A stretch of 64,000 bases of DNA from a virus (IMGVR_UViG_3300034374_005666:39256-103255); one strand, 5' to 3'. Shown: positions 18,616 to 27,950, counted from the first letter of the stretch. Numbers and translations are program-made. The notes: generated from the letters alone by a model not told the origin.

Positions 18616-19905
18616 CTAATTTTGAGACAGCAATACTCTGCTATCGTAATGTCCAACAATATTCAAGTCATGCTCTTGGATTAATTCTCCACGCATGCCT
18701 TTTTCTTTCTTTAACTTATCAAACCATTTTTCTTCAAGAGTACCTTGGGTGACTATAAAGTACAGATTAGCTACACCTTCAACCCATCTGATTCTAGCTC
18801 TACGTTGTTCCATATTATGCCACTTAGAGCTATAGCTGAAGAAGATAATATTCTGCACTCCTTCCAATGTAATACCTTGTTTAAGCATTTTACTGGAAGC
18901 AATAACAGGTTCTTCTCCACTATTGAATTTTTCAATCAACTCTAGCGCATTATCTGATCTGACTACAGGGCATATATTCTCTAGTATATCAAGACGTTCA
19001 CCAAATATGAGTGTCTTACCAGATAGTGTACTCAGTAAAGCTTTTGTTGTAGCTACTTTGGACTTCAGATTGTACAGAAAGGTAGTTAATTCTCTACCAA
19101 TAGCCATCTTAAGATACTTTGGTTTACGAAAATCCTTTCTGAAGTTATCTTTCTTTAGATAATACTCTTGCTCTGTACCTAATGTATCATAGCTCTTCCA
19201 TATCTTGATTGATCTGTCTTGAGTATCCAGATGGTGATTGATTATCCAAGTTTGATACTTAGCAATCATACCTTCTTCAATAGCCTGTTTAGTCTCTACT
19301 TTGTATACTACAGGAATATACATAGATAGCAATTGCCCCTTACTAATAAACTCTGTAATCTCTCCTCTTTTAGTTTCTGCATCTGTCTGATAAATTGTAA
19401 GAAGGTCAGCATTATCCTGTATGTCTTGAGGATATACGTGCTGGTCTAAAGACATAGCTCCAGTCAATGCAACAACATGCTTACACTTGTTGTTTATTAT
19501 ATTCTCACTATACTTAGCTGACAAGCCATCTTGAATTTCATCTGCTACCAGTAAACCTATGTTTTCAAAGTTATTAAACTCTTCCACAGGCATAGCTTGA
19601 TAGCATCTGAACTGAATGTTAAAATCAGCTACAGGGTCTTTATCAAACAGGCTTTTAAACTTAGGTATTTCATCTTCAAACAATGTCTTTTCACGTACTA
19701 TAGTCTCTGCCAGAAATACAATAGTATCTCCTTTATTGATCTTTCCATCTTCCAGCAATCTATATGCAGCCTTCAGGGAAGCTATAGTTTTACCAGCACC
19801 AGGAAACAGCATCCATGTACCTACATAGTTATTTTGTACCCAAGCTTCTACAGCTTGGTCTTGATGGTAATTCAGTCTTTCTATATTTCTTTTCATAGTC
19901 TGCAT
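18616..19905 (-). CDS. superfamily 2 helicase
   Basis: GAGKT, VADEIQD, LTGA, MLKQGITL, QRRARIR. Confidence 0.85.
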   Translation of the reverse strand: MQTMKRNIERLNYHQDQAVEAWVQNNYVGTWMLFPGAGKTIASLKAAYRLLEDGKINKGDTIVFLAETIVREKTLFEDEIPKFKSLFDKDPVADFNIQFRCYQAMPVEEFNNFENIGLLVADEIQDGLSAKYSENIINNKCKHVVALTGAMSLDQHVYPQDIQDNADLLTIYQTDAETKRGEITEFISKGQLLSMYIPVVYKVETKQAIEEGMIAKYQTWIINHHLDTQDRSIKIWKSYDTLGTEQEYYLKKDNFRKDFRKPKYLKMAIGRELTTFLYNLKSKVATTKALLSTLSGKTLIFGERLDILENICPVVRSDNALELIEKFNSGEEPVIASSKMLKQGITLEGVQNIIFFSYSSKWHNMEQRRARIRWVEGVANLYFIVTQGTLEEKWFDKLKKEKGMRGELIQEHDLNIVGHYDSRVLLSQN

Positions 19906-20030
19906 ATTATTCTGTTGCTTAAAGTTAAATCAATTGCTCTATCTGGAATAGAGTATGCTGTTCTATTGTAATACTTGTATTCATATCTAAATAAAGGATA
20001 AAAGAAACAGTAATATTTTAGATATAACAT
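19893..20030 (-). CDS. RIIC-family mini-protein, 45 aa
   Basis: MLYLKYYCFFYPLFRYEYKYYNRTAYSIPDRAIDLTLSNRIICRL. Confidence 0.75.
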   Translation of the reverse strand: MLYLKYYCFFYPLFRYEYKYYNRTAYSIPDRAIDLTLSNRIICRL

Positions 20031-20149
20031 AGTATTCTGTTTGAAATTCTTCTGGCTCGAAAGCCAGCTCTTGTCCACCCAGCAGCATTAAAATGAAATA
20101 AATCTATATAGCTTGCTTTTTTGTAAAGTTTAGTCTTTATAAGTAGCAT
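20018..20149 (-). CDS. RIIC-family mini-protein, 43 aa
   Basis: MLLIKTKLYKKASYIDLFHFNAAGWTRAGFRARRISNRILCYI. Confidence 0.75.
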   Translation of the reverse strand: MLLIKTKLYKKASYIDLFHFNAAGWTRAGFRARRISNRILCYI

Positions 20150-20280
20150 AGTATTCTATTTGATAAAGCATCAAGACCTGATATATCCCACTCATAAACT
20201 TTAACCCAATCTTCTGGTTCTTCCCTATAACGGTTAGCCCATACTAACCTAGTACCATAAATCATATTTATACAAAACAT
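20137..20280 (-). CDS. RIIC-family mini-protein, 47 aa
   Basis: MFCINMIYGTRLVWANRYREEPEDWVKVYEWDISGLDALSNRILCYL. Confidence 0.75.
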   Translation of the reverse strand: MFCINMIYGTRLVWANRYREEPEDWVKVYEWDISGLDALSNRILCYL

Positions 20281-20408
20281 ACTATTCTATTTGATGCAAA
20301 CTGATAGTTTACTTGGCTCCAATGTTTGACACAAGTAATTGTGTGGTCTAGATAAACTGATGACCATCTAAAATTATAACTATCATAAAGTTTATTTAAC
20401 AGTAACAT
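20268..20408 (-). CDS. RIIC-family mini-protein, 46 aa
   Basis: MLLLNKLYDSYNFRWSSVYLDHTITCVKHWSQVNYQFASNRIVCFV. Confidence 0.75.
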   Translation of the reverse strand: MLLLNKLYDSYNFRWSSVYLDHTITCVKHWSQVNYQFASNRIVCFV

Positions 20409-20545
20409 ACTATTCTTATTGTGTTGTCTGAAGGTGGTATGAATCTACTGTAGTAAGGGTCTTCCCGTTCTTCATGGTAAAACACAGATCTGTAGTTACT
20501 ATGACAGTAAAAAGTTATTGCTGTAACTATTTCTATATTACACAT
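20396..20545 (-). CDS. RIIC-family mini-protein, 49 aa
   Basis: MCNIEIVTAITFYCHSNYRSVFYHEEREDPYYSRFIPPSDNTIRIVCYC. Confidence 0.75.
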   Translation of the reverse strand: MCNIEIVTAITFYCHSNYRSVFYHEEREDPYYSRFIPPSDNTIRIVCYC

Positions 20546-20670
20546 AATATTCTATTTGTAATAAACCAAGCTCCTGCATGGCTATAAAAATCATGGAAAT
20601 CCCATCCTGGTTCAAATGACCAGTCATATACGTGCTCACCATATAAAGCAGAGTGATTTAAAATATACAT
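20533..20670 (-). CDS. RIIC-family mini-protein, 45 aa
   Basis: MYILNHSALYGEHVYDWSFEPGWDFHDFYSHAGAWFITNRILCVI. Confidence 0.75.
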   Translation of the reverse strand: MYILNHSALYGEHVYDWSFEPGWDFHDFYSHAGAWFITNRILCVI

Positions 20671-20798
20671 ATTATTCTATTTGTAAATCCGTTATCGTGA
20701 TATTCCATTATACTTAATATTGCTACATACCTATACGTAGTCCAGTAATAATGATCTAATACTATAAATCCATATGTTGTGTAACTTATATGTAGCAT
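20658..20798 (-). CDS. RIIC-family mini-protein, 46 aa
   Basis: MLHISYTTYGFIVLDHYYWTTYRYVAILSIMEYHDNGFTNRIICIF. Confidence 0.75.
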   Translation of the reverse strand: MLHISYTTYGFIVLDHYYWTTYRYVAILSIMEYHDNGFTNRIICIF

Positions 20799-20926
20799 AC
20801 TGTTTTGAATGTTTGTACTCTGTTTAATCTTCTAATAAACCAAAGAATCAGCCTATATTTAAAAGAAAACCTTGTTTTATGTATATAGTTAACTCCTTTA
20901 GGACTAACTATCATTATACGTAGCAT
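20786..20926 (-). CDS. RIIC-family mini-protein, 46 aa
   Basis: MLRIMIVSPKGVNYIHKTRFSFKYRLILWFIRRLNRVQTFKTVCYI. Confidence 0.7.
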   Translation of the reverse strand: MLRIMIVSPKGVNYIHKTRFSFKYRLILWFIRRLNRVQTFKTVCYI

Positions 20927-21036
20927 ACTGGCCTAATTGTGTCTATTCTTATAAATAAAGTAATTGGAAACCATCTATTAGAAAAAGAACACTCAAAGTT
21001 ATAGTTCAAGCATTGTTTAAATCCTAGTTTTCGCAT
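20914..21036 (-). CDS. RIIC-family mini-protein, 40 aa
   Basis: MRKLGFKQCLNYNFECSFSNRWFPITLFIRIDTIRPVCYV. Confidence 0.65.
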   Translation of the reverse strand: MRKLGFKQCLNYNFECSFSNRWFPITLFIRIDTIRPVCYV

Positions 21037-21094
21037 GTGCGTATATTGTTTATATTATTCTGAATACCTATGTTTGTTGTAAACAGAATAACTT

Positions 21095-21910
21095 ATGCAG
21101 ATCAATAAGATTAATGATCTATACATGGAAATACGTATTCCATACAGATCAATGAGGACTTCTTCCTATTTTCATTTATGCTCAGATGTTCACTTCGATA
21201 ATCCAGACTCAGACCAAAAGCTCTTCTTTAGCCATCTGGACAAGATTAAAAGCCTTAATGGTAAAAGCTTAATCTTTGGTGATTTCCTCTGTTTAATGCA
21301 GGGAAAATACGACCTGCGTAGTGATAAATCTAAGATCAGACCAGAGCATAACAAGAGCAATTATCTTGATGCTGTACTTGACGATACGGCGGATAAACTC
21401 AAACCTTACAAAAAGACTTTGGGTATGATTAGCTTAGGTAATCACGAAAGCCGCGTTATTGAAAGAAATGAAATTGATCCATTGCATAACTTAGCATTAC
21501 GTCTCAAAGGACTAAATACTATGGGTTATCATGGATTTATAAAGTTTATCTTTCACAACAATGGTTCTAAAGTAAGGTCATGTCTTCTCTATTTCCATCA
21601 TGGTAAATGGGGCAGTATAACCAGTTCAGTTAATAAACATGGACTTTCTGTACCACAAGCAGATATTATTGTCTCAGGTCACACACATTCTGAATTTTAT
21701 GTACCTGTACCTAGATTAAATCTGCGACAAAATGGTGAAGTAAGTATTACTAAACAGCATCACATTAAGTGTGGTACTTATAAAGATGAGTTTTTGACTA
21801 CTAAAGGTTTTGGAGTAGAAAGAATAGCTGTACCTAAGAATATAGGTTCATGGCTACTCAAGCTTACACCTACAGAAAAAGATGTAGATATTAAGTTTGA
21901 GTCTATGTAA
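21095..21910 (+). CDS. calcineurin-like metallophosphoesterase
   Basis: DVH, GD, GNHE, HHG, GHTH motifs. Confidence 0.85.
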   Translation: MQINKINDLYMEIRIPYRSMRTSSYFHLCSDVHFDNPDSDQKLFFSHLDKIKSLNGKSLIFGDFLCLMQGKYDLRSDKSKIRPEHNKSNYLDAVLDDTADKLKPYKKTLGMISLGNHESRVIERNEIDPLHNLALRLKGLNTMGYHGFIKFIFHNNGSKVRSCLLYFHHGKWGSITSSVNKHGLSVPQADIIVSGHTHSEFYVPVPRLNLRQNGEVSITKQHHIKCGTYKDEFLTTKGFGVERIAVPKNIGSWLLKLTPTEKDVDIKFESM

Positions 21911-22049
21911 TGCAGATTATTCTATTTGTTAACCAATAAGACCTTTCTAAGAAATTATCATGGTAAGGCCATTTGTTCCAATCAGCTAATTCAGCTTCAA
22001 AATCTTCATGGTTGTAGTAAAGAAATAAACATTCATTTACATGTAACAT
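21903..22049 (-). CDS. RIIC-family mini-protein, 48 aa
   Basis: MLHVNECLFLYYNHEDFEAELADWNKWPYHDNFLERSYWLTNRIICIT. Confidence 0.75.
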   Translation of the reverse strand: MLHVNECLFLYYNHEDFEAELADWNKWPYHDNFLERSYWLTNRIICIT

Positions 22050-22183
22050 ATCATTCTCATTGTAGTATTGCTGTTAAGCACAGCATGTATAATCTTACGA
22101 CTTTCTAGTATTGCATCTATTCCCTCAAACAAATTATCAAAAGTTTCAAACAGAATAAATCTAAAACAATTTATAGTATGCAT
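22037..22183 (-). CDS. RIIC-family mini-protein, 48 aa
   Basis: MHTINCFRFILFETFDNLFEGIDAILESRKIIHAVLNSNTTMRMICYM. Confidence 0.7.
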   Translation of the reverse strand: MHTINCFRFILFETFDNLFEGIDAILESRKIIHAVLNSNTTMRMICYM

Positions 22184-22305
22184 ATAGTACGTATTGTAGT
22201 GTCTGTATATCCAAAGTTTCCACCATAAACAAAAGAGTATTTAAATAAATTACCCATTGACAAATAGCATGTGTATGCTTTAATACAATTGAGTAGTTTT
22301 ATCAT
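22171..22305 (-). CDS. RIIC-family mini-protein, 44 aa
   Basis: MIKLLNCIKAYTCYLSMGNLFKYSFVYGGNFGYTDTTIRTICIL. Confidence 0.7.
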   Translation of the reverse strand: MIKLLNCIKAYTCYLSMGNLFKYSFVYGGNFGYTDTTIRTICIL

Positions 22306-22469
22306 ACTTCAAACGTTTTATTCCACACATACACTAGTATGTGATAGAATCCATCATTCTTAGCTACTATATAGTAACCTTTCATATCTGTAACTAATCT
22401 TTCTAATTCAATCTCAAGCATATATGCAGGTATAACTGCAATATATGCACCATTCAAGTCTTCCAGCAT
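22302..22469 (-). CDS. non-family small protein within array 2, 55 aa
   Basis: MLEDLNGAYIAVIPAYMLEIELERLVTDMKGYYIVAKNDGFYHILVYVWNKTFEV; ATGA overlap with next unit. Confidence 0.55.
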   Translation of the reverse strand: MLEDLNGAYIAVIPAYMLEIELERLVTDMKGYYIVAKNDGFYHILVYVWNKTFEV

Positions 22470-22479
22470 TTGTTTACTA

Positions 22480-22608
22480 TTATAAGTGACATAATATTCT
22501 TATTGATTGGTCATCTATTCTCATTGCCATTACCCAATGATTATTGCTGTATTCAAAATTATAAGATGGAAATTTTGGATAGCTTATAAGCCGTTTTATA
22601 CATAGCAT
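22480..22608 (-). CDS. RIIC-family mini-protein, 42 aa
   Basis: MLCIKRLISYPKFPSYNFEYSNNHWVMAMRIDDQSIRILCHL. Confidence 0.75.
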   Translation of the reverse strand: MLCIKRLISYPKFPSYNFEYSNNHWVMAMRIDDQSIRILCHL

Positions 22609-22727
22609 AATATTCTGTTTGATTTGTCTCGTATTTCTAAAGAAGTATTTATAAAAACATTATCTTCATACCATTTATAACTGTATGAGTCATATACTTT
22701 TGTTATACATTTTATTATAGTTGACAT
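22596..22727 (-). CDS. RIIC-family mini-protein, 43 aa
   Basis: MSTIIKCITKVYDSYSYKWYEDNVFINTSLEIRDKSNRILCYV. Confidence 0.75.
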   Translation of the reverse strand: MSTIIKCITKVYDSYSYKWYEDNVFINTSLEIRDKSNRILCYV

Positions 22728-22834
22728 ATTATTCTATAGTTTGTGTATCTTTGTCTCAAGTATTTAAGTGCAAAAGACTGGAATTTAAAATTGAGTAAGT
22801 AATGACGAGTACCTTTTGCTATAAATGACAGCAT
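22715..22834 (-). CDS. RIIC-family mini-protein, 39 aa
   Basis: MLSFIAKGTRHYLLNFKFQSFALKYLRQRYTNYRIICQL. Confidence 0.7.
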   Translation of the reverse strand: MLSFIAKGTRHYLLNFKFQSFALKYLRQRYTNYRIICQL

Positions 22835-22959
22835 ATTCTTAATGATTCATCTAAACTAAAGTGAAGAAATACACCAAACTTTTGATCTAATAAAATCTCT
22901 TTATGAGAGTATGTTATCCAAAGTCTTGTATAGGTTAAAAAAGTCTTTATATGTAGCAT
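22819..22959 (-). CDS. RIIC-family mini-protein, 46 aa
   Basis: MLHIKTFLTYTRLWITYSHKEILLDQKFGVFLHFSLDESLRICCHL. Confidence 0.7.
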   Translation of the reverse strand: MLHIKTFLTYTRLWITYSHKEILLDQKFGVFLHFSLDESLRICCHL

Positions 22960-23084
22960 ATAACTCTATTTGTGCTGCTAAGAAAGCTTACATACTTGTT
23001 CTTATCTATATTGGTAAAGAAACGTGCATTAAAGCTAATCAACTGTTTGTTTATAAATGACTCATAAAAAATAATTCTTAACAT
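22947..23084 (-). CDS. RIIC-family mini-protein, 45 aa
   Basis: MLRIIFYESFINKQLISFNARFFTNIDKNKYVSFLSSTNRVICYI. Confidence 0.75.
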   Translation of the reverse strand: MLRIIFYESFINKQLISFNARFFTNIDKNKYVSFLSSTNRVICYI

Positions 23085-23102
23085 AGTTCAGCATAAATTA
23101 AA

Positions 23103-23137
23103 GAACCCTGACATCCAATTAAGGACATCAGGGTCTT
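23103..23137 (-). terminator. hairpin between HEEH-type gene and array 2
   Basis: ACCCTGA/TCAGGGT stem. Confidence 0.5.
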
Positions 23138-23170
23138 GTTTACCAATAACCAGCTTGGTTAAAAAAATAA

Positions 23171-23455
23171 TTAGTCGTACATCTCCATGTTACGCTCAGT
23201 AAATGGGTTGTATTCCCGTGCAATGATATTCTCATGTACACCTGCTGGAACTTGTACAGCTCCATGAGGTTCACGTACTTGAGAGTGACCTTTTACAGGT
23301 ACTTCATGGTTGATTACGCTGTCTACAGTAGTCTGATACAAGAAATTGCTCAATGGAGCATCGCCTTTGATAGTGATTTTCTTCTTCACTACTGGCTGTG
23401 CTGATTTCAGTACGTGCGCATGTGTACCTTCAGCAAGAACTAATTTGTGATTCAT
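23171..23455 (-). CDS. small His-rich beta protein, usual partner of DUF6745-like proteins
   Basis: LVLAEGTHAHVL...INHE...H..VQVPAGVH..IIAREYNP resembles the LAEGE.TGH.H...HEEH...LP.G.Y...QREY.P family. Confidence 0.6.
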   Translation of the reverse strand: MNHKLVLAEGTHAHVLKSAQPVVKKKITIKGDAPLSNFLYQTTVDSVINHEVPVKGHSQVREPHGAVQVPAGVHENIIAREYNPFTERNMEMYD

Positions 23456-23498
23456 TGTTAAACTAGTTTTAATGATTTACAAATATAATAAAATAATC

Positions 23499-24239
23499 TT
23501 AAGTCTGCTGATTAATGAGCTTAAAGAACTCATCTCCAGACAAATAGTAAGGTGTGACAGGTTTTAGCTCAGAACTATCTTTAACATCGTAAGTAACTGT
23601 ATAGACCTCACCTTGACGATTGATCTCTTTAATCTGCTTTTTGTCGTGTGTGATTTCACACAGCCAAGCTACTGCGTCTTTGACAGAATAGCTACCCTGC
23701 TGGCAAAAGTTTTCTCTGTCATCTACAGTTGCCCAATACTCTCTGTGAGTAGAAGGACACCAGAACTGAATAGCAAACACATCTCTACGCCTGTCTTCAA
23801 AGCCTAGTTCTTTTGGGCTGATAGACCATAAATGATATGTATCACCTATGTTAGACTCCCTGTTATCAGGCTCAAAGTTGAAAGTATCTACTTTCTTTTT
23901 GTTCTCTATATTATTGAACATTTGAGCAGGCCCAATATAGAAGAAAGCAATACGGCGCAGGTCTATATTCTCAATATGACTGGCTGCCTTAAAGTCAATA
24001 GCTTCTACTGAAGCCCAAATATCATCTAAGAAGCTCTTTAGCTCCTCCAGTGCCTTATTGTAAGCATTAATATGCTCCATGTTAAGATTCGTACCTTTGA
24101 TCTTCTTAGGCTCAAAGATGTCTGTTTCTTCTCTGTACATTTCAGCTGTAGTATCATATCTGGCTTTCATAATGCTACAGAACATATCAAACTTGATAGG
24201 CACATTGTCGATTGTAAAACTCAGTTTGCTAGGATTCAT
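23499..24239 (-). CDS. DUF6745-like domain protein
   Basis: ENIDLRRIAF..IG, FWCPSTHREY..TVD, VKDAVAW. Confidence 0.6.
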   Translation of the reverse strand: MNPSKLSFTIDNVPIKFDMFCSIMKARYDTTAEMYREETDIFEPKKIKGTNLNMEHINAYNKALEELKSFLDDIWASVEAIDFKAASHIENIDLRRIAFFYIGPAQMFNNIENKKKVDTFNFEPDNRESNIGDTYHLWSISPKELGFEDRRRDVFAIQFWCPSTHREYWATVDDRENFCQQGSYSVKDAVAWLCEITHDKKQIKEINRQGEVYTVTYDVKDSSELKPVTPYYLSGDEFFKLINQQT

Positions 24240-24243
24240 AGAC

Positions 24244-24885
24244 TTAATCTTTTTTAGTTACATACTCTACACATACTTCAAGAAAGTTACCAATCATGTC
24301 ATACAGACCATATTTATTTGGCATCTTGGTTCCAGGCAGTGCAGGTTTTTGCCCACTATTACCAGGATGGACAGCTACTGCATCAAGACCATGCTCTTTA
24401 ATCTGGTCTTCTGCATCTGCTTTAAGGAACTCCCACTCATCTACTGAGGGAAGTCTAAAGCCTTTCACATTAATATCTGATAGAAATACCCCATCATCAT
24501 TAATGACATATGGTAATTCAGGTAATCCAAGAAAAACATTATATTCAGCAAATGTTTTGTCTGCATGTTCGTGATTAGCATCCATCTCACCTACTTTAGT
24601 AACTTCAGTAAGCCAGTTTAGATAGTGACACACGTCAATATCTCTGATATTAGCTACTGGTAGATTTCCCCTACCAAAGCCTGAATCTGACGGGAGTGTA
24701 CGTCCTGTAGCAATACAGAACTTAGCCCATTGATTATGGCTAGTAGGATAGATTGCAGCAAAGAACCTACTGTTAAAGTTCTCTGGCTTAAGTACTTCAA
24801 TATACTCATTAGTAAGTTCCACAAATGGTGGCAACTCATGGTCAGTCTGTGTGACAACAGGCTGTGCTCCAAATGTAAATTCCAT
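24244..24885 (-). CDS. FGE-sulfatase (SUMF1)/C-type-lectin-fold protein, C-terminally truncated
   Basis: LPVANI..DVCHYLNWL, GFRLPSVDEWEF, GTKMPNKYGLYDMIGNFLEVC; lacks the RGGSW...GFR tail. Confidence 0.8.
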   Translation of the reverse strand: MEFTFGAQPVVTQTDHELPPFVELTNEYIEVLKPENFNSRFFAAIYPTSHNQWAKFCIATGRTLPSDSGFGRGNLPVANIRDIDVCHYLNWLTEVTKVGEMDANHEHADKTFAEYNVFLGLPELPYVINDDGVFLSDINVKGFRLPSVDEWEFLKADAEDQIKEHGLDAVAVHPGNSGQKPALPGTKMPNKYGLYDMIGNFLEVCVEYVTKKD

Positions 24886-24896
24886 AACTTGATTGT

Positions 24897-26756
24897 TTAG
24901 AAGATTGTTAGTTGATTATTTCTTTCAATTGTTTGTATAATACTGTTAGCCTGATGAATATAAAAGCTGTAATCTATGTCAGATATAGCTTCATCAGTAT
25001 GAGTGTTATACAGTTTAACACCATAGCCTTTTAGCATATGGGTCTTTTTATTGTTCTTTAGCTTGTACAAGTATTTTCCTTTCTTACTTACATAGTACCT
25101 ATTTAATCTTTGAGGAAGAACCTCATCTCCATATACAACTTTAAAGCTTTTATCTACTTTTTTAGACAAACAGTAATTGAATATATGATGGTCACCTTTA
25201 ATGTAGCTGTCTACAGATTGTCCTGTTCTAAAATAGTTTACTATAGCTTTTGGTACAATTAGCATATTACAGCTATCACCAAGATTAGGATTTTCTATAA
25301 AGCTTGAACCTTTAGTCTTGTATTTACCATTAGGTTTAATGGCAATATAGTTATTTACATTAGCATAGCATATTTTAGAATATTGCTCATGCTCAAATTC
25401 AAGATTAAATGTTTTTCCTACATTATCTACTATAGATAGGTATTCTTGTTCTCTATCGACAGGTACTATACACTCAAGACCGTCTGTATTCAAGCTGACT
25501 ACCTGAAAACCAGCAATAGCTAAATCTTCAAGAGTTTTAGTGAGTACAAGTTGTCCTTGCAGTCTCATCTTCATAGCTCCTTCTGGATAATACAACCATG
25601 AGTAAGGACTATCAAGTAAACCCGACAGACTATTAAGTACAAGCTTTAGAGTAACATTCTTTGCTCCATCACCTGTACGCTTAGCTTCCATACGTTCATC
25701 TTTGATACGTATGTAACTATTAAGTACTTCAGACTGTCTAATCAAACCATAGTTAATGATAAGATTTGGATATAGTGAACCTACGTCTGATGTATACACA
25801 ATATTGTGCTTATCAGATGTATATATTTCATTATTGTTTACTGAATGTATACCACCTACACCATAGCTCAATTTAATAGCAGTATTTCTATGTATAAAGT
25901 TTAATTCTGTATGAAATTCTCTACCTGCACATTGCATAGATGTGTATAATGTCTTGAAAATATGAAGCTTAAACTCTGGATTATGTAGTTCAAGACATTC
26001 ATTGCTATTGTATGTGCTTTTACGAGTTTCGTATTTGTCTGCACCTGTTTGTTTACAATATTCATCAAGCATAATCTCAGATGCAATCTTAGGAGCATCC
26101 CAAGACAAGCAATCAAGGTTATATGTTCTTTGAATATTGCGTCTAAGTTCTATCTGTTCTGCTACTGTAGTAGGTTTACCTTGCCATCTGATGGTATCAA
26201 ACAGTATTTTACGCATAATACCCATATCATGCTCATAATTGTAGTGTTTGACTTCTTCAGCCTGACTACGACTTAAATGCATACCAGGTGGATATGGCAG
26301 CTCTTGCACTATAGGATATCCAAGTTGTATACCTAAAGATTTCAAACTAATCTTTTTACTCAGTCTGAGCATTCTAGACCAGTGTAGATATACATCTATA
26401 TCAATCCAGGGATGATTGTATTTGTACTTTTTAAGATTCTGTTGTCTCCACCACATATCAGTACGTATAATATACTGACTAAATTTATCAATCTCTGCAC
26501 ATATTTCATGTACAGGTAATTGTTTGAGACTATCGTATTGTACTATTATAAATTTGATAACAGGACTATCATAGTGTATACCATTAAAACTAACTAGTTC
26601 TGCATTATGCAAGGCAGTATTATATGTCCATACTATTTTATCTAAATCATCTTGCCACTCACTAATTTCTAGTATTTCTTTCTCACCTGTATTATAGTTT
26701 TCTATAGTAGTACAAAAAAAGTTAGGATATACTTCTATGTCATGTCCATACATCAT
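24897..26756 (-). CDS. DNA polymerase family B
   Basis: Exonuclease DIEVY, FNGIHYD, YNYEHD; polymerase DVGSLYPN, KLVLNSLSG, NTDG. Confidence 0.92.
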   Translation of the reverse strand: MMYGHDIEVYPNFFCTTIENYNTGEKEILEISEWQDDLDKIVWTYNTALHNAELVSFNGIHYDSPVIKFIIVQYDSLKQLPVHEICAEIDKFSQYIIRTDMWWRQQNLKKYKYNHPWIDIDVYLHWSRMLRLSKKISLKSLGIQLGYPIVQELPYPPGMHLSRSQAEEVKHYNYEHDMGIMRKILFDTIRWQGKPTTVAEQIELRRNIQRTYNLDCLSWDAPKIASEIMLDEYCKQTGADKYETRKSTYNSNECLELHNPEFKLHIFKTLYTSMQCAGREFHTELNFIHRNTAIKLSYGVGGIHSVNNNEIYTSDKHNIVYTSDVGSLYPNLIINYGLIRQSEVLNSYIRIKDERMEAKRTGDGAKNVTLKLVLNSLSGLLDSPYSWLYYPEGAMKMRLQGQLVLTKTLEDLAIAGFQVVSLNTDGLECIVPVDREQEYLSIVDNVGKTFNLEFEHEQYSKICYANVNNYIAIKPNGKYKTKGSSFIENPNLGDSCNMLIVPKAIVNYFRTGQSVDSYIKGDHHIFNYCLSKKVDKSFKVVYGDEVLPQRLNRYYVSKKGKYLYKLKNNKKTHMLKGYGVKLYNTHTDEAISDIDYSFYIHQANSIIQTIERNNQLTIF

Positions 26757-26869
26757 AATTTACATATTATTCTTATTGTAAAGTAGTCAGGTCTAGATTG
26801 CCATGACCAAACCCAAAAGTCTGTATACGCTGTTTTACCAACATCTTTAAAGTATTTTATATGTAGCAT
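26753..26869 (-). CDS. RIIC-family mini-protein, 38 aa
   Basis: MLHIKYFKDVGKTAYTDFWVWSWQSRPDYFTIRIICKL. Confidence 0.75.
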   Translation of the reverse strand: MLHIKYFKDVGKTAYTDFWVWSWQSRPDYFTIRIICKL

Positions 26870-26994
26870 ATTATTCTTATTGTATAAGATTCAGGGAGTA
26901 TCCAACCCATTAGAAACCACTTAAAAAGAAATACACTTTCATCTCTAAAGAAATAAGAAAAACCAGAAAGTCTATATTTATCTATATATAACAT
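26857..26994 (-). CDS. RIIC-family mini-protein, 45 aa
   Basis: MLYIDKYRLSGFSYFFRDESVFLFKWFLMGWILPESYTIRIICYI. Confidence 0.75.
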   Translation of the reverse strand: MLYIDKYRLSGFSYFFRDESVFLFKWFLMGWILPESYTIRIICYI

Positions 26995-27125
26995 ATTATT
27001 CTAATTGTAGTACCTCTTGGAAAGACCATATCTATTAAATTCCAATGAAACGTAGACTTATGCTTAAACAACCTTTCTACATATCTCTCTGAACCTATTA
27101 AAACTAAATTATCTACATAACGCAT
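26982..27125 (-). CDS. RIIC-family mini-protein, 47 aa
   Basis: MRYVDNLVLIGSERYVERLFKHKSTFHWNLIDMVFPRGTTIRIICYI. Confidence 0.75.
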   Translation of the reverse strand: MRYVDNLVLIGSERYVERLFKHKSTFHWNLIDMVFPRGTTIRIICYI

Positions 27126-27256
27126 ACTATTCTATTTTCAACTGTTGAGGGAAGATTCATTCGTAAAATAGACCAATCAAAATTATTCCAAGGTTTATCA
27201 AATGTTGACATGTAAGTAATATTCTCTAATAGTCTATAATGTTTTATACGTAGCAT
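27113..27256 (-). CDS. RIIC-family mini-protein, 47 aa
   Basis: MLRIKHYRLLENITYMSTFDKPWNNFDWSILRMNLPSTVENRIVCVM. Confidence 0.75.
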   Translation of the reverse strand: MLRIKHYRLLENITYMSTFDKPWNNFDWSILRMNLPSTVENRIVCVM

Positions 27257-27387
27257 ATTATTCTAGTTGTCATTGACATAGTAATAGGCCAATTAGGCTC
27301 AAAAAACCAAGAAAAGCCATTGAAATCTATATCTCCTGAATTATAGCTATAATTTTCTTTTCTGCATATTCTATTTATACGTAACAT
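27244..27387 (-). CDS. RIIC-family mini-protein, 47 aa
   Basis: MLRINRICRKENYSYNSGDIDFNGFSWFFEPNWPITMSMTTRIICYV. Confidence 0.75.
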   Translation of the reverse strand: MLRINRICRKENYSYNSGDIDFNGFSWFFEPNWPITMSMTTRIICYV

Positions 27388-27518
27388 AGTATTCTAATTG
27401 TTTCTACTCTATCAAAAAATATATTATTATCATTTTCAAGTATCCATTGTAAAGGTCTGTCTCCTACACGCCCATAAGTAAATCTTCCTTCGACACCTAT
27501 ATATACTATAAGTTGCAT
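27375..27518 (-). CDS. RIIC-family mini-protein, 47 aa
   Basis: MQLIVYIGVEGRFTYGRVGDRPLQWILENDNNIFFDRVETIRILCYV. Confidence 0.75.
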   Translation of the reverse strand: MQLIVYIGVEGRFTYGRVGDRPLQWILENDNNIFFDRVETIRILCYV

Positions 27519-27664
27519 ATTATTCTGATTGTTTCATCGTTAAGCATGATATCAAGCGGGCTAGAATCTCCACTAAGGCCAAACTCCAAAGCATCAATTT
27601 CTATAGAATTTGAAAACCATGAAAAACCTGAAGTAAGCTTATACATTAATGTTATATTACGCAT
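27506..27664 (-). CDS. RIIC-family mini-protein, 52 aa
   Basis: MRNITLMYKLTSGFSWFSNSIEIDALEFGLSGDSSPLDIMLNDETIRIICNL. Confidence 0.75.
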   Translation of the reverse strand: MRNITLMYKLTSGFSWFSNSIEIDALEFGLSGDSSPLDIMLNDETIRIICNL

Positions 27665-27810
27665 ATCGATCTTATTGTTTCTACATCATCTGTACGTAAA
27701 GAAGATGTACTTATTATAAACCAAGCTCTAAGCTCTATATCATCTCTTTCATGTTCATATTTCCATGAACATGTGCCTAATGTTCTTATCAATCCTATTA
27801 CAGCATGCAT
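27652..27810 (-). CDS. RIIC-family mini-protein, 52 aa
   Basis: MHAVIGLIRTLGTCSWKYEHERDDIELRAWFIISTSSLRTDDVETIRSICVI. Confidence 0.75.
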   Translation of the reverse strand: MHAVIGLIRTLGTCSWKYEHERDDIELRAWFIISTSSLRTDDVETIRSICVI

Positions 27811-27950
27811 ATTATTCTAATTGATTCAGTATCTCCTGTGTTTACAGGCCAGTGAACTAATAAATTCCATGCCTTTATAGCATGAGGATAATAATGTTTA
27901 TCCCTGTTTGAATAATTACCTAAAACAATTAATGTTTTTACATTCATCAT
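27798..27950 (-). CDS. RIIC-family mini-protein, 50 aa
   Basis: MMNVKTLIVLGNYSNRDKHYYPHAIKAWNLLVHWPVNTGDTESIRIICML. Confidence 0.75.
   Translation of the reverse strand: MMNVKTLIVLGNYSNRDKHYYPHAIKAWNLLVHWPVNTGDTESIRIICML

Follow-up and report, generated by a model that had tools for sequence, protein, structure and literature searches.

TvpA (PDB 2Y3C) is a diversity-generating retroelement (DGR) variable protein of Treponema denticola, and Mtd of a Bordetella phage belongs to the same group. The C-type-lectin fold of these proteins is defined by a hydrogen-bonded pair of strands, beta1 and beta5 (Handa et al. 2016, PMC5006420). Their variable region of ~54 amino acids (aa) begins at or just after beta3; an aromatic residue at its base does not vary, and its last element is an invariant beta5 (PMC5006420). 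We compared these systems with a locus found in a 64,000-nt window of viral DNA (IMGVR_UViG_3300034374_005666:39256-103255). The window is the whole stretch that was analyzed, taken from a virus record of 103,255 nt that is estimated to be 95% complete, and all positions are counted from its first letter. Its minus strand carries three arrays totalling 26 overlapping mini-genes and a single truncated lectin-fold gene (Table 1). We favor the reading that these genes specify a split variable protein, in which one scaffold would be completed in trans by any of 26 germline-encoded tips, and we assign to it a probability of roughly 55%.

The logic of the DGR proteins would be the same, namely a constant body followed by ~40-54 C-terminal residues that vary around a fixed aromatic residue and end in an invariant beta5. 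The scaffold of the window shares their fold, with TvpA as the closest match in both sequence and structure searches. In contrast, the variable stretch is here separate from the scaffold polypeptide, is encoded 26 times as genes of its own and presents no detectable sequence likeness to canonical variable regions. A DGR system was rejected: the 103-kb genome (estimated 95% complete) contains no RVT_1 match at E ≤ 0.1 and no template. We found no repeat of the template type (~90% identical and differing at adenines), the interiors of the units resembling one another no more than shuffled sequences do; at the DNA level the units have only the junction repeats in common and no adenine-specific pattern was observed. 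The absence of both a reverse transcriptase and a template-like repeat suggests that the diversity is hard-wired rather than DGR-made.

Other described systems resemble the locus in part. In chaperone-usher pili, immunoglobulin (Ig)-like pilins undergo donor-strand complementation by a neighboring subunit or a chaperone. An incomplete beta-sheet fold is likewise completed by a strand from another polypeptide, but the fold is a different one (Ig-like) and the donor does not come from a library of alternative peptides. The orphan modules of contact-dependent inhibition (CDI) and Rhs systems and the pilS and vls cassettes are swapped into a main gene at the DNA level, usually without a start codon of their own. 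Like the mini-genes, they form tandem sets of alternative C-terminal modules, with a short conserved junction at their borders that promotes recombination. Each unit of the present arrays, in contrast, possesses a start and a stop of its own, and no junction is found in the main gene. In the hyperplastic regions of T4-type phages, promoter/stem-loop cassettes flank small and mutually unrelated ORFans, and the repeat is intergenic. Such regions share with the arrays the runs of small, fast-evolving genes parted by a short conserved repeat able to mediate shuffling; they differ in that our units are paralogues and our repeat is dual-coding, with no promoter or hairpin signal found in it. A first-pass annotation of the window had stated that no such system was known, and our literature searches also found no published equivalent.

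The same annotation had reported 26 open reading frames (ORFs) of 38-52 codons on the minus strand, and all of them are present in chains of 9+8+9, each starting with ATG. We counted stop codons in their interiors, excluding the junctions: none was found among 875 codons in the reading frame, compared with 58-116 in each of the five other frames (probability of ~1e-26 at the lowest other-frame rate, by our own arithmetic). We then compared array 3 with that of a relative, a 2.2-kb metagenome contig (L028) showing ~90% nucleotide identity over the array. The annotation had proposed that related arrays freely accumulating internal stops and frameshifts would refute its reading; all eight orthologous units of L028 are open and the indels observed in two of them are in frame (52 to 53 aa and 47 to 48 aa). 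The differences distribute unevenly over the codon positions (41/17/51; chi-square ~17, by our own arithmetic) and the ratio of nonsynonymous to synonymous differences (pN/pS) is 0.35 overall, relative to 0.06 for the flanking cell-wall hydrolase. Public protein sets contain more than ten additional alleles of several units, all of them intact and with conservative changes in the tail, including several intact alleles of unit 20137-20280. By these sequence signatures, the mini-ORFs are protein-coding genes under purifying selection and not a DNA repeat. The content of the array also differs between the two relatives: besides the eight orthologues that are kept, one unit (26753-26869) is missing from L028, with the breakpoint falling precisely between two identical junction copies of 17 nt, which indicates that the junction repeats mediate the gain and loss of units. 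Unit 27506-27664 is more divergent from its orthologue (L028:1190-1351; pN = 0.21 and pS = 0.39, relative to pN of 0.01-0.09 in the other units), with about ten central residues replaced. This points to local mosaic exchange or diversifying selection.

Both ends of the mini-proteins were described by the annotation as constant. Both are real, but the ML.I start and the RI.CY. end are one piece of DNA of ~27 nt read in two frames. On the minus strand this junction reads roughly ACAAnnAGAATAnTATGYTAnnTATAAA and encodes T-x-R-I-x-C-Y-x-stop in the upstream frame and M-L-x-I in the -1 frame, the Cys codon TGY overlapping the downstream ATG. Its conservation extends from -14 to +13 around the ATG and is much stronger than that of ordinary gene starts of this genome. 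The junction carries A at -3, -6 and -12, which are three of the four positive initiation determinants measured in Flavobacterium johnsoniae (PMC6847099). Junction repeats of 27-30 nt recur at a spacing of 104-146 nt and consecutive ORFs overlap by 13 nt, or 16 nt in one case. A start-to-start spacing of 2 mod 3 had been presented as very unlikely by chance; the spacing is indeed observed, but its weight was overstated because the fixed overlap automatically places each unit in the -1 frame of the preceding one. The same type of junction leads from the final unit of array 1 (19893-20030) into the superfamily 2 (SF2) helicase gene with a 13-nt overlap, and the final unit of array 3 (26753-26869) overlaps the start of the polymerase gene by 4 nt (ATGA). 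In the junction that precedes the polymerase gene (26753-26775, minus strand), the conserved ATG is directly followed by TAA, forming a start-stop, and the polymerase start is an ATGATG located 8 nt beyond. No match to the junction motif was found near the 3' end of the scaffold gene (24244).

The C-terminal motif of the mini-proteins was confirmed: Cys is found at position -3 in all 26 units and Arg at -6 in 25 of them (Lys in the exception). The conserved tail reaches position -8, with the form [T/S]-[N/I]-R-I-[I/L/V]-C-[Y]-[I/L/V]. At the N-terminus, position 4 is I, L or V in 25 units and Leu2 is present in 14. The Arg of the tail is encoded by AGA, CGT and AGG, the variable bases of the tail fall in NTA codons that always yield I, L or V, and Thr and Ser alternate at -8. 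Moreover, the last unit of array 2 (21903-22049) retains TNRIIC despite the change of its downstream ATG to ATC. Together, these observations indicate that the tail is selected as protein and not only as DNA.

The cores are rich in aromatic residues, as annotated: relative to the long ORFs of the phage, W is 3.3 times, F 2.0 times and Y 1.7 times more frequent. They had also been described as mutually unrelated. This holds at the nucleotide level (interior likeness of 0.545 and 0.542 for the units and the shuffles, respectively; maximum 0.65; no GC-rich units) but not at the protein level, since an aligned Tyr is common to 25/26 units and an aligned Trp to 19/26, above all 100 interior-shuffle controls. 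Judging from these alignments, the units are old and strongly diverged paralogues with a common aromatic framework. A six-frame search of the genome with a hidden Markov model (HMM) of the family identified exactly 26 members, every one of them in the arrays. The profile of the 26 units, when searched against sets of 5.8 and 1.84 billion proteins, retrieved only this lineage and one spurious tandem-repeat protein; these public sets contained only some of the units (three in one and seven in the other). No match to the mini-proteins was found in Pfam, PHROGs or the PDB sequences. The relatives identified by their polymerase (40-63% identity; viral and metagenome contigs) present no such chains, no family members and no homologues of the scaffold or of its 246-aa and 94-aa neighbors within ±10 kb. 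The annotation had recommended a scan of other phages; in viral contigs, the junction pattern gave only three single, chance-like matches and no arrays. Across these searches, the mini-protein family is confined to this phage lineage.

The candidate scaffold gene is located directly downstream of the polymerase gene and two genes upstream of array 2. Its product matches the Pfam family FGE-sulfatase (PF03781; 37.5 bits for a cut-off of 23.3), named after formylglycine-generating enzymes (FGE), and a six-frame search agrees; the match covers only profile positions 61-191 of 255. The only match among PDB sequences is TvpA (2y3c; query 135-208 against residues 154-232 of 294). TvpA is also the structure that best fits the AlphaFold model of the scaffold (predicted local distance difference test, pLDDT, of 70.7; Foldseek E = 1e-4; VIA Z = 14.3; root-mean-square deviation of 2.7 over 164 residues), followed by FGE, PvdO, CarF and EgtB. 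By profile and model, the scaffold belongs to the FGE-type C-type-lectin fold. The complete form of this fold, with a C-terminal beta5 in the same chain, is not found in it: full-length relatives continue for ~40 aa where the scaffold stops (RGGSW...R.W...GFRVA) and human FGE aligns to it only up to residue 310-324. Nor did a C-terminal HMM find the canonical segment (RGGSW...GFR) anywhere in the genome. Among eight distinct alleles drawn from several assemblies, the length (213 aa) and the end are identical, which indicates that the truncation is a stable trait and not an assembly error. Read-through of the stop was rejected as noise, since it extends the match only marginally, to profile position 216, and crosses two stops. 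An identity as a catalytic FGE is not supported because the C-terminal segment with the catalytic cysteine pair (Cys336/Cys341 in human FGE) is missing. From these alignments, the scaffold lacks exactly the part that comprises the variable region and beta5, and the mini-proteins are 38-52 aa long. None of the 80 bacterial FGE loci that we examined was truncated.

Two FGE-domain loci from other sources were noted in addition. A Saprospiraceae metagenome-assembled genome encodes an FGE-domain protein whose variable segment is nearly all Asn between constant residues (L069:1312-1431; W-N6-CRVSNR-N4-S-NN-R-N4-GFRVA); this is exactly the segment that the phage scaffold is without, and it resembles a variable region that is either DGR template-like or freshly templated. 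A viral contig (L176:1-1780) presents two adjacent full-length FGE-domain genes that both end in GFRVVCD, where a Cys lies three residues past the beta5 Arg, as in the tail of the mini-proteins.

The canonical beta5 reads G-F-R-[VLI]-[AV]-x-x-[LPIV] near the C-terminus, with a Cys at R+3 in 4/66 sequences, and has in common with the tail the form R-hydrophobic-hydrophobic-x-x-hydrophobic. We predicted the complex of the scaffold and one unit (27113-27256), supplying both as our own alignments. The interface score (ipSAE) reached 0.89 (0.90, 0.76 and 0.89 in the individual runs), compared with 0.02 for the best of three controls: on the scaffold, two similarly sized peptides without relation to the mini-proteins reached 0.02 and 0.00, and the mini-protein reached 0.00 with an unrelated protein. 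The ipSAE mark is reached by 58/80 solved complexes and by 2/110 mismatched pairs, a calibration that is rough here given the use of our own alignments. Contact agreement between runs was at least 44% and the pLDDT of the partner at least 43. The confident interface joins residues 37-47 of the mini-protein to scaffold residues 39-48, 138-146 (the GFRLP segment) and 200-204, and scaffold residues 41-44 form a strand when the scaffold is modeled by itself. The pLDDT of the scaffold was 75-83 with the mini-protein and 59-69 with the unrelated peptides. The AlphaFold model of a mini-protein alone, built from the alignment of paralogues, was unusable (pLDDT of 51). The docking result suggests that the tail resembles the missing beta5 strand, binding itself being a prediction; the tail would probably be the last beta-strand of the truncated scaffold, rather than a free-standing tag.

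Under the split-protein reading, the 26 translated paralogues (~45 aa each) would combine a variable aromatic core, with its semi-constant Tyr and Trp, and a constant tail supplying the missing beta5 of the single scaffold, which ends just before the part of the fold that bears the variable, ligand-facing region in TvpA/Mtd-type DGR proteins. Any mini-protein could complete the scaffold in trans by inserting its strand against the first strand of the scaffold, such that an infected cell might contain up to 26 different scaffold-tip heterodimers. The repertoire of binders would be germline-encoded without the need of a reverse transcriptase. The junction performs two jobs, encoding the tail in one frame and placing the next ATG of the -1 frame in an A-rich, Bacteroidota-type initiation context, so that 13-nt overlaps link the genes in chains that run on to the helicase and polymerase genes. 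As a direct repeat, it also allows units to be gained and lost. We consider it an even bet that a ligand-binding lectin has been kept as a constant body with 26 separately translated, interchangeable tips joined by beta-strand complementation, the tips being so diverged that only the docking strand is still recognizable. We infer a binding site formed by the core, and a ligand for it. The position of the arrays among replication genes, together with the lack of a signal peptide, suggests that the scaffold-tip complexes may act intracellularly. The annotation had proposed an expressed peptide repertoire with constant ends and a variable core; the diversified coding family with its constant tail and variable core stands, the tail now being refined to a predicted beta5. 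Of the two functions it proposed, target recognition is made more likely by the predicted docking, whereas the neutralization of host defense is pure speculation.

If docking is real, one scaffold and many genome-encoded tips would provide a combinatorial system at the protein level, of which we found no published description. It would represent a protein-level, germline counterpart of DGR- or antibody-like diversity without a mutator, distinct from hypermutation (DGRs), from DNA rearrangement (antibodies, variable lymphocyte receptors, pilS/vls) and from cassette swapping (CDI/Rhs). It would also account for the conservation of a truncated lectin-fold gene, add 26 small proteins to the phage genome and provide a naturally split protein open to engineering as a platform for binders. 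The design would be compact, a single 27-nt junction serving as structural strand, start of the next gene and recombination site for the units. Even if docking is wrong, the locus is still unusual, in that mini-genes which overlap one another have expanded in a single lineage and run as chains into essential replication genes.

Several observations weigh against a split variable protein. The profile of the mini-proteins does not align significantly with 66 canonical C-terminal segments (hhalign; P = 0.27-0.74), although the best local alignment sets T.RIIC on GFRvar. When the mini-proteins are individually fused to the scaffold, the FGE HMM score shifts by a mean of -0.08 bits, compared with +0.35 for shuffled sequences. 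Only the last 11 residues of the mini-protein are confidently placed, the pLDDT of the core being 44-46 in the complex and 51 alone, and the high docking score may stem in part from intact FGE/lectin folds that the model has learned. The overlapping start codon and its initiation context impose part of the conservation of the tail. The 26 tips face a single scaffold gene, and between it and arrays 1 and 2 lie other genes and a terminator-like hairpin. Finally, none of the 80 viral FGE-like loci that we examined was truncated or accompanied by stand-alone tips.

Some of these points are shared by the main rival explanation, in which the mini-proteins act on their own as small early or accessory proteins, such as paralogues involved in host takeover or anti-defense. 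Their constant ends would then result mainly from the coupling junction, and the predicted docking would be an artefact of an exposed sheet edge. We regard this as somewhat unlikely. It agrees with the conservation of the junction as DNA from -14 to +13 in a good Bacteroidota initiation context, with the overlap of the Cys codon and the ATG, with the lack of sequence likeness to canonical lectin C-termini, with the confident placement of the tail alone and with the location of the arrays among genes of replication, a frequent place for small accessory genes in phages. Against it, the Arg is retained through three different codons, and the tail is retained where the downstream ATG was lost; the docking controls scored 0.02, 0.00 (peptides on the scaffold) and 0.00 (mini-protein on an unrelated protein), and the truncation conserved in eight scaffold alleles needs a separate explanation. 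The mini-proteins might otherwise be ribosomal peptide precursors or substrates. In the pathways of ribosomally synthesized and post-translationally modified peptides (RiPPs), leader peptides are held by recognition domains through strand addition, and FGE act on Cys-containing peptides. The lectin-fold protein could similarly hold the tail like a RiPP leader while the Cys is modified, perhaps by neighboring proteins. The invariant Cys, the short conserved tail next to a hypervariable core, the activity of FGE-family enzymes on Cys-containing peptides, the predicted docking of the tail and the two uncharacterized genes adjoining the scaffold are all compatible with this scenario. However, the scaffold lacks the C-terminal segment with the catalytic cysteines of FGE, Pfam and PHROG searches detected no family of modifying enzymes nearby, and the tail is predicted at the structural position of beta5 rather than in a substrate groove, which makes the scenario improbable.

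Even less probable is the possibility that the arrays are silent DNA cassettes which recombine through the junction repeat and fuse a new tip to the scaffold gene, as in CDI/Rhs orphan modules, pilS or vls. The junctions are direct repeats, and a whole unit was gained or lost exactly between two identical 17-nt copies. Against this, every unit possesses its own ATG in a good initiation context; the 3' end of the scaffold gene lacks the junction motif and the eight scaffold alleles end alike at 213 aa, with no fused form found. We give hardly any credence to the idea that the region is a non-coding array of DNA or RNA repeats (promoters, processing sites or CRISPR-like elements) whose ORFs are incidental. 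The recurrence of a 27-30-nt repeat at a spacing of 104-146 nt recalls such arrays, but the count of stops (0 compared with 58-116), the differences by codon position (41/17/51), the pN/pS of 0.35 and the in-frame indels are those of genes, promoter-like sites are not above chance, and neither terminators within the arrays nor an Rfam match were found. As far as sequence evidence reaches, a CRISPR-like or regulatory-repeat nature was rejected on these coding signatures.

The mini-gene arrays sit within a minus-strand replication module (Table 1). The family A DNA polymerase of the window is ~31% identical to polymerases of Crassvirales (from gut samples) and 40-63% identical to those of contigs from uncultured viruses and metagenomes, one of which bears a marine title. 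From this comparison, we read the source as a divergent crAss-like phage. An alternative genetic code was rejected as unneeded, since the long genes are intact under table 11.

Table 1. Features of the mini-gene locus, in order of decreasing window coordinate
Feature	Coordinates	Strand	Remarks
Array 3	26753..27950	-	Nine mini-genes, all HMM family members
Array 3 units	27798-27950, 27652-27810, 27506-27664, 27375-27518, 27244-27387, 27113-27256, 26982-27125, 26857-26994, 26753-26869	-	
Example junction	26857..26883	-	T-I-R-I-I-C-Y-I-stop in one frame, M-L-H-I in the -1 frame
Family A DNA polymerase (PolA)	24897..26756	-	Between array 3 and the scaffold gene, same strand; 31% identity to Crassvirales polymerases
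FGE-type C-type-lectin scaffold, 213 aa	24244..24885	-	Truncated; ends 8 residues past the GN..E. motif
246-aa gene	23499-24239	-	Between the scaffold gene and array 2
94-aa gene	23171-23455	-	Between the scaffold gene and array 2
Terminator-like hairpin	23104..23135	-	13 pairs and a T run; between the 94-aa gene and array 2
Array 2	21903..23084	-	Eight mini-genes, all HMM family members
Array 2 units	22947-23084, 22819-22959, 22715-22834, 22596-22727, 22480-22608, 22171-22305, 22037-22183, 21903-22049	-	
Unrelated 55-aa ORF	22302-22469	-	Without the tail; interrupts array 2
Metallophosphoesterase gene	21095..21910	+	Pfam Metallophos, 22.5 bits; opposite orientation, separates arrays 1 and 2
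Decayed junction copy	21043..21062	-	ATA in place of ATG; immediately precedes the first unit of array 1; repeat family D11
Array 1	19893..21036	-	Nine mini-genes, all HMM family members
Array 1 units	20914-21036, 20786-20926, 20658-20798, 20533-20670, 20396-20545, 20268-20408, 20137-20280, 20018-20149, 19893-20030	-	
SF2 helicase	18616..19905	-	Pfam Helicase_C and ResIII; its ATG lies inside the last junction of array 1

Between arrays 1 and 2 (21037-21925), the decayed junction copy upstream of array 1 and the ATG lost downstream of unit 21903-22049 suggest a single older array that was divided by the insertion of the inverted metallophosphoesterase gene. The unrelated 55-aa ORF that interrupts array 2 matched no protein family, except for a very weak hint of Inhibitor_I69 (E = 0.19); the junction preceding it opens only a 12-codon ORF, which overlaps its start. 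The strong hairpin before array 2 lies 20 nt upstream of the first unit, and array 2 may therefore need read-through or an unseen promoter of its own. No terminator-like hairpin was found inside any of the three arrays and no Rfam family matched the array region. Sigma-70-like promoter sites numbered 59 for 55.4 expected, as counted by a tool that does not include Bacteroidota-type promoters.

The 246-aa and 94-aa proteins encoded between the scaffold gene and array 2 presented no Pfam or PHROG match at E ≤ 0.01 and no Atlas match. The 94-aa protein contains His-rich motifs, G-T-H-A-H near the N-terminus and P-A-G-V-H-E-N later, which recall two cupin motifs without profile support. Finally, the match to PolA is split in two pieces in three related contigs (L013:10001-12883, L014:10001-12883 and L015:8169-10182), with a gap of ~1 kb in the first two and of ~260 nt in the third, which looks like the insertion of an intron, an intein or a homing endonuclease.

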